Below, one piece after another: positions 1 to 44,086 of a DNA stretch of 44,086 nt. The position numbers and the translations under genes are program-made. Source of the stretch: Candidatus Sigynarchaeum calidifontis (GTDB taxonomy: Archaea > Asgardarchaeota > Lokiarchaeia > Sigyniarchaeales > Sigyniarchaeaceae). Location of the stretch: contig JAUQYZ020000024.1 of NCBI GenBank assembly GCA_030587475.2, positions 1 to 44,086 on the forward strand, in the 5' to 3' direction. How positions within the stretch are numbered: position 1 is the first letter of the stretch; each line of letters opens with the position of its first letter. The notes beneath the pieces are model-generated. The model was not told the origin of the DNA. It ran no database searches and was given only the letters and a program-made list of their open reading frames with translations.

Positions 1-1113
1 TCCCACGTCATTTTTGGCCAGACCATCGCCGCGTATGTTTTTTGCTTCATTCTTGATGTGGTCGTCATCGGCATAGCCTCGAATGCATACTACGCCGCGC
101 AACGGGTTCAAGTACCTGATCTCGTCGAACAGAGATACAGGGGAAGGGTCAACTCGATCGTGAATCTCATGTCTTTGTTGGGCATGCTAATGCCAGCCAT
201 CCTCACGCTGCTCGCGAACCAATTTCTATCGATCCCTGACCCGCTCGATGCGGGATGCATCGACGGCAATCCAGCAACATCCTGCTCACGAATTCTCACG
301 GCCGAAGGGCACGTGCTCTTGCTATCTGTCGGCGGGCTCGCGATCATGATCGCCGCGATACTTGGCTTCGTGTTCTTGAAAGAAAAAACAGGGCCTGATG
401 CCCTCCCCCCGAAGCTATCATTGACGACCGAGCTTCGTCGGACGTTCAACTTCAAGGAATTGAATAGGCAGAAAGAATTCTTCAAGCTCATCCTTGCGAT
501 GCTGATTTTCATGTCAGGCGTGTCGGCGATACTGTCTTATCTCTTGAACATCATCTTTAATCTCGGTATTCAGACATTTGGCTTGGTCATCATCTTAGGC
601 ATTGCCCTGCCGTCTGTGCTCGTCCTCATTTTTTTGCTGGGGAAATACACGGACAAGCACGGCCGGAAAAAGGTCACGATCCCGACGATATGCATGTCAT
701 GCGCCGGGTTTGCCATGATGCCCTTCATCATCGAGTCCGGCATGATTGCTGACACGGGTAGCGTGGAGCAACTCCCGTCGATCTTGCTCGTTGCCCTCGC
801 CTTCACGTTGATCGTTCTGGGGATGGTCGGCGTGACGGTGCCGGCGTCCACGTGGTCACAGGATTTGTTGCCCGAGGGGAAAAAGGGGCAGTTCAACGGC
901 ATCTACAACATCATCAATACCGTGTCTCAAGTTATAGGCGCGATGACCGCGGGCATCTTCACGACGTATCTGGGCAGCGTCTTTACGAGTAAATTCACGT
1001 GGATCTTCATCATCGTGCCGGTTTTTTTCCTGGCGAGCATCCCCCTCTTCATGAAGGTGAAGGAAACGCTCGTCATTGGAGGCAAGAACGATGCAACGCT
1101 ACCCCCCACGTGA
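1..1113 (+). CDS. MFS transporter (5'-truncated by window edge)
   Basis: Frame is open from base 1; many TM segments; MFS loop motif GKYTDKHGRKK. Confidence 0.9.
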   Translation, partial: SHVIFGQTIAAYVFCFILDVVVIGIASNAYYAAQRVQVPDLVEQRYRGRVNSIVNLMSLLGMLMPAILTLLANQFLSIPDPLDAGCIDGNPATSCSRILTAEGHVLLLSVGGLAIMIAAILGFVFLKEKTGPDALPPKLSLTTELRRTFNFKELNRQKEFFKLILAMLIFMSGVSAILSYLLNIIFNLGIQTFGLVIILGIALPSVLVLIFLLGKYTDKHGRKKVTIPTICMSCAGFAMMPFIIESGMIADTGSVEQLPSILLVALAFTLIVLGMVGVTVPASTWSQDLLPEGKKGQFNGIYNIINTVSQVIGAMTAGIFTTYLGSVFTSKFTWIFIIVPVFFLASIPLFMKVKETLVIGGKNDATLPPT

Positions 1114-1704: not shown

Positions 1705-3576
1705 TCATAACTCGTCCTCGAAGAACACGGCAACGTCGTCCTCTTCCTTTTTAATTCGTTCCACCTTGTATCCTTGCTGTTCCGATTCGGTCCGGGGGAG
1801 CCGGCAATACCAGTCATAGATCGACTTCTTTTCCTTCCGCCTGCTGTAGAACACGTTCAGTGCACCGCCGGGATGGAGCATGGGCAGGATGTTCGACTCG
1901 GGCTCGATCATCATCTCGATGATGCACGTCTGATCCGCCTTTTTGGCCTGCTCGAGCGCGCCGGCAACCTGCTCCGGCTTCTCCACGCGGATGCCGGGAA
2001 GCCCGTAGGCATCGGCAAGTTTCACGAAGTCGGGGTAATACTTGCCGTCTTTACAGCCGAGGCACGTGTATGCGTACCGCTTCTCGTAGAGGATTTCTTG
2101 CCACTGGCGGACCATGCCAAGATACTGGTTGTTCATGACGATGATGTTTACCTTGATGTCGTTGTTCTTCACCGTCGCGAGCTCGTGAAGGTTCATTTGG
2201 AAGGATCCATCCCCCGCGACGATCCAGACTTCTGAGCCCGGCTTGGCGACCTTGGCACCGATTCCTGCAGGGAACCCGAAGCCCATGGTACCTAGCCCGC
2301 CGGACGAGATCCAGGTCCGCGGTTTCCTGATGTTGAGATAGTGCGCCGCGAACATCTGTGCCTGGCCGACCTCGGTCACGACGATGTCGTCGGTGGCGAG
2401 GATCTTGTTGAGCTCGAACATGACCTTCTCGGGAATGACCCGGCCTGTCTTGCCGGGTTTTATCGCGTCTGGGATACCGCTGGATTCCTTTAGTTCCTTG
2501 ATGTACTTGTACCACCACGAACGGGTCGTCCCGTTTTTCTGATCGGCGATGCGCCGCTTGACTTGGTCGAGGAACTCTTGCAGCGCTAGCTTGAGATCCG
2601 CCACGATCGGCACGTCGACTGGTACATTCTTGCCGATCTCGGCGGTGTCGATATCGACGTGGATGATCTTCGCAGATGGCTGCCCGGGGAAATGTGCCAG
2701 GTCCCCGGTGATCCGGTCGGAGAACCGCGTGCCCAACGCGAGGATCGCGTCTGCCTCGGAGACCGCGAAGTTCGACCGCTTGCGGCCGTGCATGCCGAGC
2801 ATGCCGAGCACGTACGGGTGGTCATCGCTGATCACCCCCTTGCCCATGAGCGTGTACACGACGGGGATGCGGAGCAGGTTGACCAGATCCTCCAGTTCCT
2901 TGCTAGCATTGGCAAGCGCGACACCGCCCCCCGCGATGATGACCGGATATTGCGCGTTGAAGAGGATGTCGAGGGCTCGCTTGATCTGGAGCGATGCACC
3001 CTTGGAAAAGACTCGAGGATTGTAGGACACGAGCTCGATCTTGTCGGGAATGGGCTCGGCCAAGGTGGTCTCGGCAACCTGCACGTCGCGCGGGAGATCT
3101 ATGAACACAGGGCCTGGACGTCCGGTCGTGGCGATGTACGCCGCCTCCTTGAAGACCCGCCCGAGCATGTTCACGTCCTTGACCTGGTAGTTTTGCTTGG
3201 TGACAGCCATGGTACAGCCAACGACATCCGCCTCCTGGAACGCGTCGTTCCCCACGAGCCACGTGGAAACCTGGCCCGAGAAGGCAAGCACGGGGCTGCT
3301 ATCATAATATGCATTTGCCAGGGCAGTCACGAGGTTCGTCGCCCCCGGCCCGCTGGTCGTCACGCACACGCCGAGCTTGCCCGATGCCCTTGCAAAACCA
3401 TCGGCCGCGTGGCCAGCGGATTGCTCGTGCCGGACAAGGATCATGCGAATGTCATTTTCGGCATAAATGCGGTCAAAGAACGGCATGATCTGGCCGCCAG
3501 GATAGCCAAAGAGCGTGGTATTTTTCGTGTCTTTGAGAAACTTGACGATGATGTCCGTTCCGATAATGGTTATCAC
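1705..3576 (-). CDS. ilvB: Acetolactate synthase large subunit
   Basis: FGYPGG, RHEQSAGHAADG, TSGPGATN, SGGLGTMGFG, ThDP motif GDGSFQMN...NNQYLGMVRQWQ. Confidence 0.97.
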   Translation of the reverse strand: MITIIGTDIIVKFLKDTKNTTLFGYPGGQIMPFFDRIYAENDIRMILVRHEQSAGHAADGFARASGKLGVCVTTSGPGATNLVTALANAYYDSSPVLAFSGQVSTWLVGNDAFQEADVVGCTMAVTKQNYQVKDVNMLGRVFKEAAYIATTGRPGPVFIDLPRDVQVAETTLAEPIPDKIELVSYNPRVFSKGASLQIKRALDILFNAQYPVIIAGGGVALANASKELEDLVNLLRIPVVYTLMGKGVISDDHPYVLGMLGMHGRKRSNFAVSEADAILALGTRFSDRITGDLAHFPGQPSAKIIHVDIDTAEIGKNVPVDVPIVADLKLALQEFLDQVKRRIADQKNGTTRSWWYKYIKELKESSGIPDAIKPGKTGRVIPEKVMFELNKILATDDIVVTEVGQAQMFAAHYLNIRKPRTWISSGGLGTMGFGFPAGIGAKVAKPGSEVWIVAGDGSFQMNLHELATVKNNDIKVNIIVMNNQYLGMVRQWQEILYEKRYAYTCLGCKDGKYYPDFVKLADAYGLPGIRVEKPEQVAGALEQAKKADQTCIIEMMIEPESNILPMLHPGGALNVFYSRRKEKKSIYDWYCRLPRTESEQQGYKVERIKKEEDDVAVFFEDEL

Positions 3577-3612
3577 GTCCCGTGGTTCATGATGCTCGAT
3601 GCAGCATAAATA

Positions 3613-3663
3613 GCATGGTGGTCGCGCAAGAGGAAGGAGGAGGATTGCGCGAGCCGATCATGC
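3613..3663 (-). promoter_or_regulatory. Putative attenuator hairpin between leader peptide and ilvB
   Basis: Minus strand reads GCAUG-AUC-GG-C-UCGCGCAA [loop UCCUCCUCCUUCCUC] UUGCGCGA-CC-AC-CAUGC then UAUUUAU; the stem overlaps the leader stop codon. Confidence 0.65.
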
Positions 3664-3738
3664 GATGACCAGGATACCGATAATTACGAGCACGACAAGT
3701 ACATGCACGGTTACCAGGGATATCGGTATTCTCATCAT
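3658..3738 (-). CDS. Putative ilv leader peptide MMRIPISLVTVHVLVVLVIIGILVIA (26 aa)
   Basis: Manually translated; 6 Ile + 4 Leu + 7 Val; SD AGGAAGGAG at 3753-3745; ends 81 nt before the ilvB GTG. Confidence 0.8.
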   Translation of the reverse strand: MMRIPISLVTVHVLVVLVIIGILVIA

Positions 3739-3779
3739 TGCAGTCTCCTTCCTTAGACCAAGCTAATAAGGACATGCGG

Positions 3780-3786
3780 TTTTAAA
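3780..3786 (-). promoter_or_regulatory. TATA-like box of leader-ilvBN transcript
   Basis: TTTAAAA about 42 nt upstream of the leader ATG, placing the inferred TSS near 3755. Confidence 0.55.
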
Positions 3787-4050
3787 TGCTTGCGGTTATT
3801 CGGACTTGAAGCCGAGGACGTTCATGGACGCATCGAGGGCGATGGCCCCGGCATGTTTTTTCGTGGAAAAGGCTTCGTTTTCGGGGCATTGCAAGAACTC
3901 GGTTTCCGTACACGTTTCGATGGTAAACGGCACCTCGATCGCGGCTTGATTGCCGACCCTGGCATCACGGGGCTTTCCAACATCGAACCGGGCCATGCTG
4001 GTGAAGCCCAAGTGCCCCGACCCGCCCGCCACGGAAATCAGCCATCATCG

Positions 4051-4851
4051 TTACTTGGCCAAGACTTTGAACGCCCAATAATGCAAGCGCATCGGGCCTG
4101 TCGATTTTTCCTGCTCGCCTCTTTGGTATATCGTCGTGAACCCCGTGTACAAATTGTTGCTGACCACGGCGTGAATCGAGGGGTCGTGGAAGAGAACATT
4201 CATCTCCGCGGTGGACAACGGCTCGTCATGGTCGATGTTCACGAGGCCAGGGCCTTGGAAGGCGCTCCTGGCGAAGGGAAAACTGACGCGGCGGAAGTCG
4301 CCCAGGTACTTCTGGCATGCCTGTCCCGCAGCCCCGCCAATGGTCTCATCGCCGGGAAGGAGTAAAATACTATGAGGCGACGCGAAGATGACCGTCGCAG
4401 CGGGCCCTCCTTGATTCTCGTCGGGGGCAATCCGTGCGCGTGCAGGACCCGCTGCGAACGCGAGCAAGTAGTAACCTTCGCCGATGCGAACCGTGCATTG
4501 CGGCGCGATACCCGTTTCCCAGAACGAATCGCGGCGGATGGTGGACAGCGAGTCCACGCGGAACTGGATCCCGGCCTTGCCGAACGGCAAGGAGACTCTC
4601 TCCATGTCCTCGAAGAATTGTCGCTGGCGCTCGATTTCGGCTCGGATCCCTGGTTCGATGGAAGAGGCAGGCAGATCGATGGCACCCTTGAGGGAAGAGA
4701 ACATCTCATCGTAAGCCTCCTTGGCGGCACCGAGATAAAAAGCTTCATCGATGGGCTCCCGCCGGTAAACGTCGATGGCGATTGCTTTGGAAATCTCGGC
4801 GATCGCTCGCACGAACCCGAGGCGTGCGGTAGCGTCGGCATCATCCGCCAT
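4051..4851 (-). CDS. Hypothetical protein (266 aa)
   Basis: ATG-started ORF with protein-like composition; no family recognised. Confidence 0.7.
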   Translation of the reverse strand: MADDADATARLGFVRAIAEISKAIAIDVYRREPIDEAFYLGAAKEAYDEMFSSLKGAIDLPASSIEPGIRAEIERQRQFFEDMERVSLPFGKAGIQFRVDSLSTIRRDSFWETGIAPQCTVRIGEGYYLLAFAAGPARARIAPDENQGGPAATVIFASPHSILLLPGDETIGGAAGQACQKYLGDFRRVSFPFARSAFQGPGLVNIDHDEPLSTAEMNVLFHDPSIHAVVSNNLYTGFTTIYQRGEQEKSTGPMRLHYWAFKVLAK

Positions 4852-7382: not shown

Positions 7383-8678
7383 ATGAACGACCGGATCGAG
7401 ACTGACATCGTGATTTCTGGCGGAGGACTTGCCGGCTGCCTGGCAGCGATCGCTGCCAAGCGCGTGAACCCAAAAGCGAGCGTTTACTTGATCGAGCGGT
7501 ACGGGTTCCTCGGCGGGATGGCGACCGCTGGCTTTGTCTTTCCATACATGCGATACAGCACGATGGTGTCGGGCAAAGCCAAGCGACTATGCGGGGGCTT
7601 GTTCAAGGAACTAAATGACCGCATGGTCGAAGCCGGGTACATGCACGACGCGAGGAGCGAGTTCCCCACCAGGTTCGACCCCGCGATGTTGCGTTGCATC
7701 CTCGACGAGATGGTTCTGGAAGCCGGGGTGTCCCTCTTGTTTCACGGGCTCGTGAATCGCGTGGTGACCAGCGATGCACCCGGTGGCATCAAGCGGGTCG
7801 AGTCGGCCGACGTCCAGACCAAGGCCGGCACGATAAAGGCCAGTGCCCGGTATTTCATCGATGCCACGGGCGACGCGGATATCGTGTTTCACGCGGGCGG
7901 CGAGGTGCAAGTGGGCCGCGAAAGCGACGGGCTCGTCCAGCCAGCCACGCTGAACTTCCGCATGGGTCACCTGGGCATCATGCGACCGGCGCGCATCCAG
8001 ATCGCCATGAAAATACGACAAGAGAAGTCGAGGGGTAACCCGCTCACGCCGCGGGACGACTGCCTCGCCTTCGATGCCGGGAACGGGCGGCTGCATTTTA
8101 ACCAGACGCGCGTGGCCGGGTTCGACTTCACCGATCCTGCCGCCATGACCGCGGCAGAGATCGAGGGCCGCAAGCAAGCCCGCCGGTTCATCGACTTCTT
8201 GCGGGGGAAGGTGCCCGGCTTCAAGCATGCCGTGGTCGAGGGGCTCGGCACGCAACTCGGCGTGCGCGAGACGAGGCGCATCGTCGGCGAGCACGTACTA
8301 ACGGAGCACGAATTGCGCGGTTGCGAGCAATTCCCCGATCGCATCGCGCTGGGCAATTACCCTGTCGACATCCACGACCCCAAGGGTTCCGCCAGCACGG
8401 ACATCCGGCGCATCCCGGCAGGCAAATGGTATAGCATCCCCTACCGGTGCCTCGTGCCAAGGGGTATATCGAACGTGCTCGTCGCGGGCCGCCCTGTCTC
8501 GGCAACGCACGTGGCACACTCGGCCATCCGGGTCATGCCCATCTGCGCGGTCATCGGCCACGCTGCCGGCGTCGCGGTAGGCCTGGCATCGAAGCATGAT
8601 GCAAACATCGCGCTGAAAGACGTGCCGATCGGCGAGATCCAGGACATCCTTAGGCAGCAAGGCGCCGTCCTCGAGTGA
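7383..8678 (+). CDS. FAD-dependent oxidoreductase (FAD_oxidored-type)
   Basis: GGGLAG, ERYGFLGGMAT, IDATGDAD, GVRETRRIVG, YSIPYRCLVP. Confidence 0.9.
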   Translation: MNDRIETDIVISGGGLAGCLAAIAAKRVNPKASVYLIERYGFLGGMATAGFVFPYMRYSTMVSGKAKRLCGGLFKELNDRMVEAGYMHDARSEFPTRFDPAMLRCILDEMVLEAGVSLLFHGLVNRVVTSDAPGGIKRVESADVQTKAGTIKASARYFIDATGDADIVFHAGGEVQVGRESDGLVQPATLNFRMGHLGIMRPARIQIAMKIRQEKSRGNPLTPRDDCLAFDAGNGRLHFNQTRVAGFDFTDPAAMTAAEIEGRKQARRFIDFLRGKVPGFKHAVVEGLGTQLGVRETRRIVGEHVLTEHELRGCEQFPDRIALGNYPVDIHDPKGSASTDIRRIPAGKWYSIPYRCLVPRGISNVLVAGRPVSATHVAHSAIRVMPICAVIGHAAGVAVGLASKHDANIALKDVPIGEIQDILRQQGAVLE

Positions 8679-16363: not shown

Positions 16364-17152
16364 TCATTGATTGGACTTCGACAAGTGGGTAACTACCGTT
16401 GACGGCCTTGTACTCGTTCCGATGGAAATCCTTCCCGAGATTTTCGAGAATCTCGTGGCGAACGCGGAAACCCCGTACGCGAACATGACGAGCCCGGCGA
16501 TTTTCAAGATTAATGAACTGAAATAGACGACGATCCTGGGGAGTGACGCCAGGATGGCTTCGGTTGTGATGGTGGCCCCGATCGCGTATGCGATGATGCC
16601 GAAGGCGATGAGTAGGCTCGGGATCTGGTATGGGGAACGCTGCCGGCCCATGTAAATGAAAAAAAACGGCAAGATTATCGTGACGCAATTGGCACTCAAG
16701 AGAAACATCGAAACGAAGTCAAACTCGGCTTTTGAATTCACGGGAAAGAAATACAAGCACGTTGCAAACGCCGCGATCATGTATGCGAAGATTCCCTTGA
16801 ACTTGAACTTGAAAATGCGGTAATCGGTCACAAACATAAACACGGCGTAGCCCATGCTGGCGATCAACGTCGCTGTTTTCCAATACCAGATAGCGGGGGA
16901 CAAATGATAAACACCCGGATCGAACCGGGTCCAGACGAAATCAAATTGCATGTAGATGAGACGTGAAACGATGAGACATACCACGAGGATGATCACGCTG
17001 AAAGCAAATCCGAATGAGAATTTTCCCACGGCTTTTGTATGGTCATATTCTTCCTTTGAAAGGAATGCTAGCAAGCCGGCCTTTGCCGTGACAAGGAATA
17101 CCGACAATATCAAGAAAATGTTTAGCTCCCGGTCCGGGATCATCATGATCAT
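16364..17152 (-). CDS. 7-TM membrane protein of unknown function
   Basis: About seven hydrophobic helices; start uncertain (17143-17215). Confidence 0.78.
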   Translation of the reverse strand: MIMMIPDRELNIFLILSVFLVTAKAGLLAFLSKEEYDHTKAVGKFSFGFAFSVIILVVCLIVSRLIYMQFDFVWTRFDPGVYHLSPAIWYWKTATLIASMGYAVFMFVTDYRIFKFKFKGIFAYMIAAFATCLYFFPVNSKAEFDFVSMFLLSANCVTIILPFFFIYMGRQRSPYQIPSLLIAFGIIAYAIGATITTEAILASLPRIVVYFSSLILKIAGLVMFAYGVSAFATRFSKISGRISIGTSTRPSTVVTHLSKSNQ

Positions 17153-39983: not shown

Positions 39984-40097
39984 TCATGCTTTGATCAATG
40001 CCCTTTTTTCGCGTTGTTCAATAATCATGCGCCATTTGAATAGTTTCCTATCGACGACATTTTCGGCAAGCAGCTTGTCCAGCAAAATATCAGTCAT
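39984..40097 (-). pseudogene. Internally deleted paralog (37 aa) of antitoxin-like gene 41182-41421
   Basis: MTDILLDKLLAENVVDRKL vs MTEISLDKALAENLVDTKL; IIEQREK vs LLDQREK; central ~42 aa missing. Confidence 0.72.
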
Positions 40098-40203
40098 GAT
40101 GATTTATCACGCGGGCGTATTCCAAAAACGGGGCAAAATCATTTTCAAAGCTTGAAAAAAAGGTATCATTGTTTGGGTCGACCATGAAGGTCCAGGATCG
40201 AGC

Positions 40204-40461: not shown

Positions 40462-40677
40462 TCATCCTCTTCTGACCCTGCAGAAATGGGCTACCATCAT
40501 GATAATTGTCTGGGTATTTAACAATGACGGGTGTACAAAAGCGGATGCATAAAAGCTATGGAGATAATGGAAGCTATTGGAAGGCGTGTTTGCATAGATT
40601 TCGTCGATATTCTCGGAGGGATTGTCACCGAAGAGAGATTACTTGTCTTGTCCAAGCATATCGAGAAAAATTCGAAT

Positions 40678-40741
40678 GGAAAATAAGAAGGAATGGCAGT
40701 GAACGTGCTGTTGGGGCACGCTTCCGCCGTCATTCGTGCAT
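40678..40741. repeat. 64-bp direct repeat, copy 1
   Basis: GGAAAATAAGAAGGAATGGCAGTGAACGTGCTGTTGGGGCACGCTTCCGCCGTCATTCGTGCAT, identical to 43684-43747. Confidence 0.97.
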
Positions 40742-40776: not shown

Positions 40777-41160
40777 TCAGAATCGACATCTTGGATCGAG
40801 TAATATGTTCTTCTTCACCAGATCGCACAAACGAGGGATGTCCTGTTCTGGTATGCCGAGCATCGGGCTCGCATATCCCTCTTGCGTTTTCCGTGGATGA
40901 AAATGATGAGGCGTCGTGCTGACCTTCCACGTGTCGTCAAAGTTATCGAACCTACAGCGATCGAGTTCGTTTGACGAGAAGATAAACGAATACGAGTATT
41001 GATCATGATCGTTGAAATAAACGATGATAATCGTACTGTCTTGCAGTACCACGCGCAAACGAACCAAAATATCGTTGAAAAACAAGCTTGAAACACAGTG
41101 ACCGAGATCTCGCTCGATCAGCGTTTTCGCGATCTCCAGCTTATCGATCCCGTCCATCAT
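40777..41160 (-). CDS. DUF6516 (TumE-like) putative toxin
   Basis: YSY...RFDN...STTPHHFH motif; directly downstream of a small helical partner gene. Confidence 0.72.
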   Translation of the reverse strand: MMDGIDKLEIAKTLIERDLGHCVSSLFFNDILVRLRVVLQDSTIIIVYFNDHDQYSYSFIFSSNELDRCRFDNFDDTWKVSTTPHHFHPRKTQEGYASPMLGIPEQDIPRLCDLVKKNILLDPRCRF

Positions 41161-41181
41161 ACGACCTCGATCGGTAAACGA

Positions 41182-41421
41182 TTACGAATTCCAGCGTTTC
41201 TTGAGCTGGAGAAGCTTTTCCCGCTGGTCGAGCAAGTTGGTCATGCCGATCGCGTCTTCCTCCGCTTCTCGTATCACGCCTTTTTTCGCGTCATTCAAGA
41301 AGCGTGCGGCGTCTGTATAGTTCCATGCTTGGAGGATCTTCCCGATCTCATCTTGAAGTACCCGCAGTTTCGTATCGACAAGGTTTTCGGCAAGCGCCTT
41401 GTCCAGCGAAATCTCGGTCAT
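41182..41421 (-). CDS. Putative antitoxin (small helical protein)
   Basis: 79-aa helical ORF with GGTGA SD, directly upstream of the DUF6516-like gene. Confidence 0.68.
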   Translation of the reverse strand: MTEISLDKALAENLVDTKLRVLQDEIGKILQAWNYTDAARFLNDAKKGVIREAEEDAIGMTNLLDQREKLLQLKKRWNS

Positions 41422-43677: not shown

Positions 43678-44086
43678 AAAAAGGGAAAATAAGAAGGAAT
43701 GGCAGTGAACGTGCTGTTGGGGCACGCTTCCGCCGTCATTCGTGCATCTCCGGGGACGCTTCCGCCGCGGAAAGGGATCGCCTGCGCGGCCGTTGTTACC
43801 GAAGCACGTGGCCACGCGAGCGCTGCCGTCGAGGCCATGTCGGGCAGCCTGCTCGCCCCGTCAGGCGAGCGGATGGAGAACACCAGCGACCGCCGGATGC
43901 CTTGGCTCTGGCGATGCCGGCAGCCGGTTCAGTTCCCCGTGCGGCGACACTTTCGTGGCCGCCGCACCCTTTCCATATCAGAAGGTGAATCGAAGCCACT
44001 TCCATCGGGGCAGGATCATCGTCGCGGTGTTGCCATGTTGCTGCGGCGATGCCGCTTGCGCGGCCGAGCTTGTCGTTTCCCGTGCC
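43678..44086 (-). ncRNA. Candidate large structured RNA (5' end beyond window)
   Basis: Contiguous hairpins with GAAA, GCAA and cUUCGg tetraloops and G-U pairs on the minus strand; long-range helix 43967-74/43769-76; no credible ORF; ends in hairpin + pyrimidine tract. Confidence 0.6.
43684..43747. repeat. 64-bp direct repeat, copy 2
   Basis: Identical to 40678-40741; contains an imperfect hairpin at 43697-43741. Confidence 0.97.

Follow-up and report, generated by a model that had tools for sequence, protein, structure and literature searches.

Large structured non-coding RNAs (ncRNAs) outside the ribosome are, to our knowledge, rare, and the unexplained ones among them (GOLLD, ROOL and OLE) come from bacteria and do not exceed about 800-900 nt. 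GOLLD and ROOL are ornate RNAs of bacteria and phages that form RNA-only cages. These cages are built by kissing loops (PMC12990946), and both RNAs pack into a compact or multimeric particle (PMC12990946; 10.1101/2024.12.08.627333).

The window analysed here, i.e., the whole stretch of 44,086 nucleotides, ends where its contig (C250 of the source genome, G000) ends, and positions 43678-44086 on its minus strand contain only the 3′ third of a giant RNA that is cut by the contig end. The giant RNA is a stand-alone, single-copy, chromosomal ncRNA of a class outside Rfam. It resembles GOLLD and ROOL in its large, protein-free locus, its many covarying multibranch junctions, its GNRA loops and its candidate kissing loops, the last proposed from loop complementarity. 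In contrast to both, it is archaeal, it measures 1.3-1.45 kb as compared to 550-830 nt (PMC12990946), and it is located neither beside tRNA arrays nor in viral contigs. Moreover, it consists of tandem modules repeated internally, a terminal helix closes it, and it is possibly circular in part. Like OLE, it is a large structured RNA found in anaerobes and transcribed on its own, but it is twice the size of OLE and has no conserved adjacent partner gene. Membership of GOLLD, ROOL or OLE was rejected, as none of their covariance (Rfam) models matches and the phage or tRNA-array context of the first two is absent. An archaeal, chromosomal RNA of about 1.4 kb with one module repeated, from a lineage related to eukaryotes, is a ready target for cryo-EM and may show how a large RNA grows through duplication of a module.

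Extent, copies and expression of the giant RNA

The sequence-only reading had described a 409-nt element. The RNA runs on, however, for about 970 nt on a second contig of the source genome, C262, of which positions 1-966 (minus strand) carry the 5′ ~960-970 nt with the promoter and modules A-C. The DNA past the window end holds the rest of this RNA with its own promoter, and not the protein of an RNA-guided or mobile system that had been proposed there. The C262 part was found by searching the source genome with a 1.3-kb gap without credible gene in G001, a Promethearchaeota MAG of the same genus, in which an 81%-identical copy is located. A metagenome pattern scan yielded four further independent copies (L034/L037, L022, L028 and L027). 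L034 and L037 represent one strain, whose copy is 89% identical, uninterrupted and 1,374 nt long; as it spans both parts, the join between C262 and C250 is confirmed. L022 and L028 are contigs of 1,295 and 1,300 nt made up of the giant RNA alone, and the L027 copy has 68-70% identity. A distant copy of about 1,450 nt was recovered in G003, from another genus of the same family, with a covariance model of one internal domain (E 9e-17). This brings the total to seven copies, six of them closely related to one another; three are from genomes of a single Promethearchaeota (Lokiarchaeia) family and four from metagenome loci. The size is about 1,300-1,450 bases across copies (1.26-1.45 kb), and about 1,370 nt in the source genome.

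Within the family, the RNA is present in three of the four genomes G000-G003, each time as a single copy; none was found in G002, which is 78% complete. BLAST, pattern and module-B covariance searches gave no copy in other families of the order or in 100 genomes of the phylum, but these searches score limited numbers of candidates and at first missed G003, and distant copies may escape them. Viral contigs gave 45 chance word matches, none homologous to the giant RNA. Rfam scans of the window fragment and of five fuller copies returned nothing significant, and no published account was found in the literature searched, which did not extend to subscription journals.

A protein-coding region is ruled out, as most indels among the copies are not multiples of three and the variable columns have no codon period. 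In three copies the TATA box TTTAAATA is positioned 30 nt ahead of the first paired base of helix P1. The 5′ and 3′ ends of the RNA pair as two long-range helices, P1 and P2, with compensatory change, after which a U-rich tract follows.

Evidence for expression comes from public sequencing runs, in which the best holders of the giant RNA are RNA libraries. Contigs of four metatranscriptomes from four studies, which show neither strand nor expression level, cover only ~470-1830 on L037, which is the predicted gene, with zero cover on both flanks including the adjacent toxin genes. The earlier proposal of a novel Asgard ncRNA is upheld by the copy in G001, the lack of an Rfam match, the non-coding character and this confined cover, and we hold it highly probable that the RNA is real, expressed and of a class absent from Rfam. 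In one metatranscriptome run, position 1830 is joined to position 470 of L037 with one A between them, at the base of P1. This joint could represent a circular form, or, as it is seen in one contig of one run, a reverse-transcription artefact. Archaeal RNAs whose ends pair are known to be closed by direct ligation of those ends (PMC4238349). A circle spliced at a bulge-helix-bulge (BHB) was rejected: in the canonical form, the joint falls on both strands 2 nt 3′ of a central helix of 4 bp, and here no more than a 3-bp helix fits, and that only in G000 and G001.

Fold and modular anatomy

The features of the 3′ third, all on the minus strand, are the following.

43690..44086, minus: 3′ third of the giant RNA; L034/L037 span the join to C262
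43988..44086, minus: module D, 3′ part, with a GNRA hairpin (44064-44051), an arm (44051-44017) and closing strands (44013-43988) whose partners are on C262
43757..43985, minus: module E, with outer stem 43985-79/43763-57, a conserved GAUA/GCGRC internal loop, inner stem 43974-67/43776-69 and a five-arm junction
43875..43938, minus: arm 2 of module E, with a 5x5 internal loop of UGAAC (43931-27) and CUGGU (43886-82), the latter UCGGY in other copies
43795..43802, minus: invariant UCGGUAAC loop, a candidate for kissing contacts with the complementary CCGA loops in other modules
43738..43747, minus: 3′ strand of P2, pairing with the 5′ end on C262; a U-A to C-G change in G001
43701..43734, minus: terminal hairpin between P2 and P1, from the fold; an equivalent hairpin in G003
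43690..43699, minus: 3′ strand of P1, ending in the final A (43690) on the 3′ side of the putative circular joint
43678..43689, minus: U-rich tract, probable terminator, kept in G001, L037 and G003

The helices of the sequence-only reading are correct in sequence and coordinates and are contained in the minimum free energy fold of 43678-44086 on the minus strand. The fold of this fragment alone is only modestly better than those of shuffled sequences (z -2.3, compared to -1.35 for the plus strand); for the whole RNA, z reaches -13. In module E, 96% of the cells pair across six homologs and compensatory changes occur in 16 of 71 pairs, a level reached by none of 500 shuffles, with slid controls giving 2-5. 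Module B has such changes in 44 of 78 pairs with G003 included, in an alignment that was fitted to the structure. The proposed strand has 5-8 GNRA and UNCG tetraloops, the opposite one 0-1. Together with the covariation, this bears out the earlier assignment of a structured ncRNA to the minus strand, for which homolog covariation and an Rfam check had been named as tests. Regarding the individual hairpins, the GCAA hairpin (44064-44051) keeps its GNRA loop in six of six copies and the 8-bp helix closing module E is near-invariant, but the reported cUUCGg tetraloop is not kept among the copies; what is conserved there is UCGGUAAC, within a larger loop. Likewise, the reported tandem motif is a chance likeness between the closing strand of module E and the 5′ strand of the terminal hairpin, which is not kept in L022 and L027, and the Arg-rich end of one reading frame is not conserved.

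P1 and P2 close a hub, in which five multibranch domains, A-E, of 210-280 columns each are accompanied by a few small hairpins. At the level of motifs, modules B-E follow one plan, with an outer stem, a RAUA/GCGAC internal loop, an inner stem and a junction from which four or five arms branch, and the hub has 4-5 such modules in tandem. A module-B covariance model scores 11-15 bits on modules A, C and the last one of G003 and on module E of G001, in the expected places but near noise, as a match on the opposite strand reached 15.8 bits. The G003 RNA has four such modules and an insert of five 44-nt hairpin repeats, which indicates that the module content is plastic. Each of these repeats (L165:9679-9934) is a short hairpin with an identical A-rich loop, and this loop also caps the terminal hairpins in G001 and L022.

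The second arm of the modules contains an internal loop with a GAA strand opposite a UCGG-type strand, and the element in arm 2 of module E recurs in modules B, C and D. By its sequence pattern this loop appears double-T-loop-like, with a good fit in module D and a partial one elsewhere: the U1-A5 closure of a T-loop fits module D and two arms of G003, but not all arms. Compared to the CR-II/CR-III double T-loop, the GAA strand fits, whereas the partner strand is of the UCGGA type instead of UGAAA. Double T-loops clamp the tRNA elbow in RNase P, T-boxes and the L1 stalk (PMC4810234).

In both genera, each molecule has CCGA in 4-5 of its hairpin loops and UCGG in 2, which exceeds what shuffling of the loops gives (p about 0.001, in a test chosen post hoc). 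These complementary loops may form kissing contacts; their words are nearly invariant, so that the pairs have no covariation support.

Surroundings of the gene

The 3′ 67 bases of the RNA are repeated 3,006 bp downstream, and the two copies flank an islet.

43681..43747, minus: left att-like copy, the 3′ 67 bases of the RNA itself
40675..40741, minus: right att-like copy, 66/67 identical, the displaced 3′ end of the RNA gene
40777..41421, minus: islet cargo, a gene for a 79-aa partner and a TumE-family toxin gene (PF20126), also between two copies in L037
41762..43572, plus: DDE transposase (PF01609) and a small HTH ORF, in this genome only and absent from L037

When islands integrate into tRNA or tmRNA genes, they restore the 3′ end of the gene. 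The duplicated 3′ end of the giant RNA matches this pattern, which identifies the RNA as an integration target; as the elements restore its 3′ end, that end, and by implication the intact RNA, is probably under selection. The likeness covers the direct repeats around the islets and the restored gene. Unlike tRNA and tmRNA sites, the RNA has no tRNA-like fold or tag frame, and in the islets found, toxin-antitoxin pairs occur but no integrase. In G001, other toxin-antitoxin pairs adjoin copies of the RNA's 3′ end. By comparison of the loci, the DDE transposase and the HTH ORF are a later insertion into the islet, outside the RNA system. The upstream genes differ in every genome (a 795-aa ORF, a B12 radical SAM gene and a 129-aa hypothetical), and no conserved neighbour or partner protein was found across the compared loci.

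At a further locus of G001 (L014, C178, 3747-4535), a ParE toxin-antitoxin pair is flanked by two more copies of the RNA's 3′ end, an arrangement that suggests tandem cassettes at this site. Just past the right att-like repeat, at positions 40002-40146 of the window, the antitoxin-like gene occurs a second time together with its upstream region, in decayed form (75-81%). In L037, an IS110-family transposase in two ORFs is located downstream of the islet (3240-4652).

Possible functions and rival identities

The best explanation, which is tentative, is a new class of large self-assembling scaffold RNA, a compact particle with multivalent tRNA-like docking. The RNA would have grown by internal duplication of one module and would act as a structure and not as a guide or template. 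Its GNRA loops and the complementary CCGA and UCGG loops would lock modules together, in one molecule or across several, to give a compact particle comparable to the GOLLD and ROOL cages. The repeated double-T-loop-like arms would offer several flat docking sites, most plausibly for the elbows of tRNAs or for tRNA-like RNAs, which would be stored or buffered in this way. Part of the RNA pool would be stabilised by joining of the two ends at the base of P1.

The repeated internal loop could also be read as a protein-binding site. As an RNP scaffold or protein sponge, comparable to CsrB-CsrA or OLE, the RNA would bind one protein copy per module and titrate or organise that protein. The fourfold occurrence of RAUA/GCGAC per RNA and its survival between genera agree with this, as do the seven extra near-identical hairpin loops of G003, which are typical of multivalent binding sites. 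However, no conserved neighbouring gene points to a partner, the internal loop by inspection misfits the k-turn consensus, and the ornate conserved structure goes beyond what sponges need. Such a scaffold or sponge appears unlikely.

The rival to be taken seriously is RNase P RNA: the family retains RNase P proteins without a detectable RNase P RNA, a gap that can be tested. Pop5 and Rpp21 are encoded in all four family genomes (G000-G003) and HARP in none. An RNase P RNA is found in none of the four, neither by Rfam nor by a P4 scan nor by a lineage-specific model that recovers it in four of five sister-family genomes that Rfam had missed. The giant RNA occurs in three of those four family genomes and was found nowhere outside the family in the searches made. 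Archaeal RNase P RNA (RF00373; about 290-330 nt in the Lokiarchaeia type) shares with it the P1/P2 frame closing the molecule (P1-P2-...-P2′-hairpin-P1′), the hairpin before P1′, the own promoter and the single copy; its double T-loop, J11/12-J12/11, is resembled in part by the arms, and a circular form of RNase P RNA also occurs in archaea (PMC4238349). In this reading, the giant RNA would serve the family as RNase P RNA or stand in for it, in a hugely expanded form that has S-domain-like arms multiplied and a catalytic core unlike P4 and works with Pop5, Rpp21 and partners. Nevertheless, the GAGGAA (CR-I)/P4/CR-V signature is found in none of the seven copies with up to two mismatches allowed, whereas the same scan detects 24 of 27 control RNase P RNAs, and neither RF00373 nor the lineage-specific model matches. 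At the site of CR-V, only one base separates the terminal hairpin from P1, with ACARAA and the 3′ strand of P4 absent; CR-IV is lacking too, and the hub has no conserved 7-8 bp pseudoknot. The RNA is also four times longer and has several T-loop-like arms instead of one. Judged by the missing CR-I, P4 and CR-V, it is not a member of the RNase P RNAs. As to the gap itself, the family genomes are only 63-89% complete, and G002 and G005 lack both RNAs. Altogether, an RNase P RNA or replacement is quite unlikely. Decidedly doubtful is the full scenario, in which the canonical RNase P RNA was lost in this Asgard family and the giant RNA took over with tRNA-elbow clamps, the retained proteins and a core unlike P4, as a third kind of RNase P.

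G005 itself encodes Pop5 and Rpp21 but not HARP, and has no RNase P RNA by Rfam, the lineage-specific model or the P4 scan. A CR-I-like word in this genome proved to be coding sequence.

A guide or template RNA of a mobile element has already been largely refuted and is very improbable. Points in its favour are the DDE transposase 600 bp away in the window, the IS110 gene pair 1.4 kb downstream in L037 and the direct repeats around the islet. Those repeats are the RNA's own 3′ end, which makes the RNA the target of integration and not its cargo. Moreover, the RNA is single-copy in each genome and absent from viral contigs, no reverse transcriptase, TnpB or IscB is nearby, and neither transposase is common to different copies, the DDE transposase being missing from the 89%-identical L037.

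A grossly expanded 5S rRNA, suggested by the lack of a 5S match in G000, G001 and G003, the paired ends and a loop-C-like word near the 5′ end of the G000 RNA, is scarcely credible, as this word is altered in four other copies, loops B and E are absent or misordered, RF00001 does not match, a weak 5S match exists in G002 and G000 has a better candidate on contig C207.

Other identities were rejected as well. For archaeal SRP RNA, the helix 8 motif and a match to RF01857 are absent, and the SRP RNA is located on another contig (C173). For group I and II introns, tmRNA and rRNA there is no Rfam match, host gene or catalytic motif, the gene being free-standing with its promoter.

Some observations concern other RNA genes. 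An array of about 20 tRNA genes is located on contig C212 of the source genome (11601-17652). The candidate for the missing 5S rRNA on C207 (about 16610-16920, minus strand) is an RNA of ~310 nt with paired ends and a 5S loop-C-like word. The 5S rRNA genes of several relatives (L071, i.e., G005:C63, about 7400-7680, minus strand; L084; L086-L089) appear to be circularly permuted, with the 3′ strand of helix I placed ahead of the 5′ strand and a four-base loop between them, and the gene of G005 has extra hairpins.
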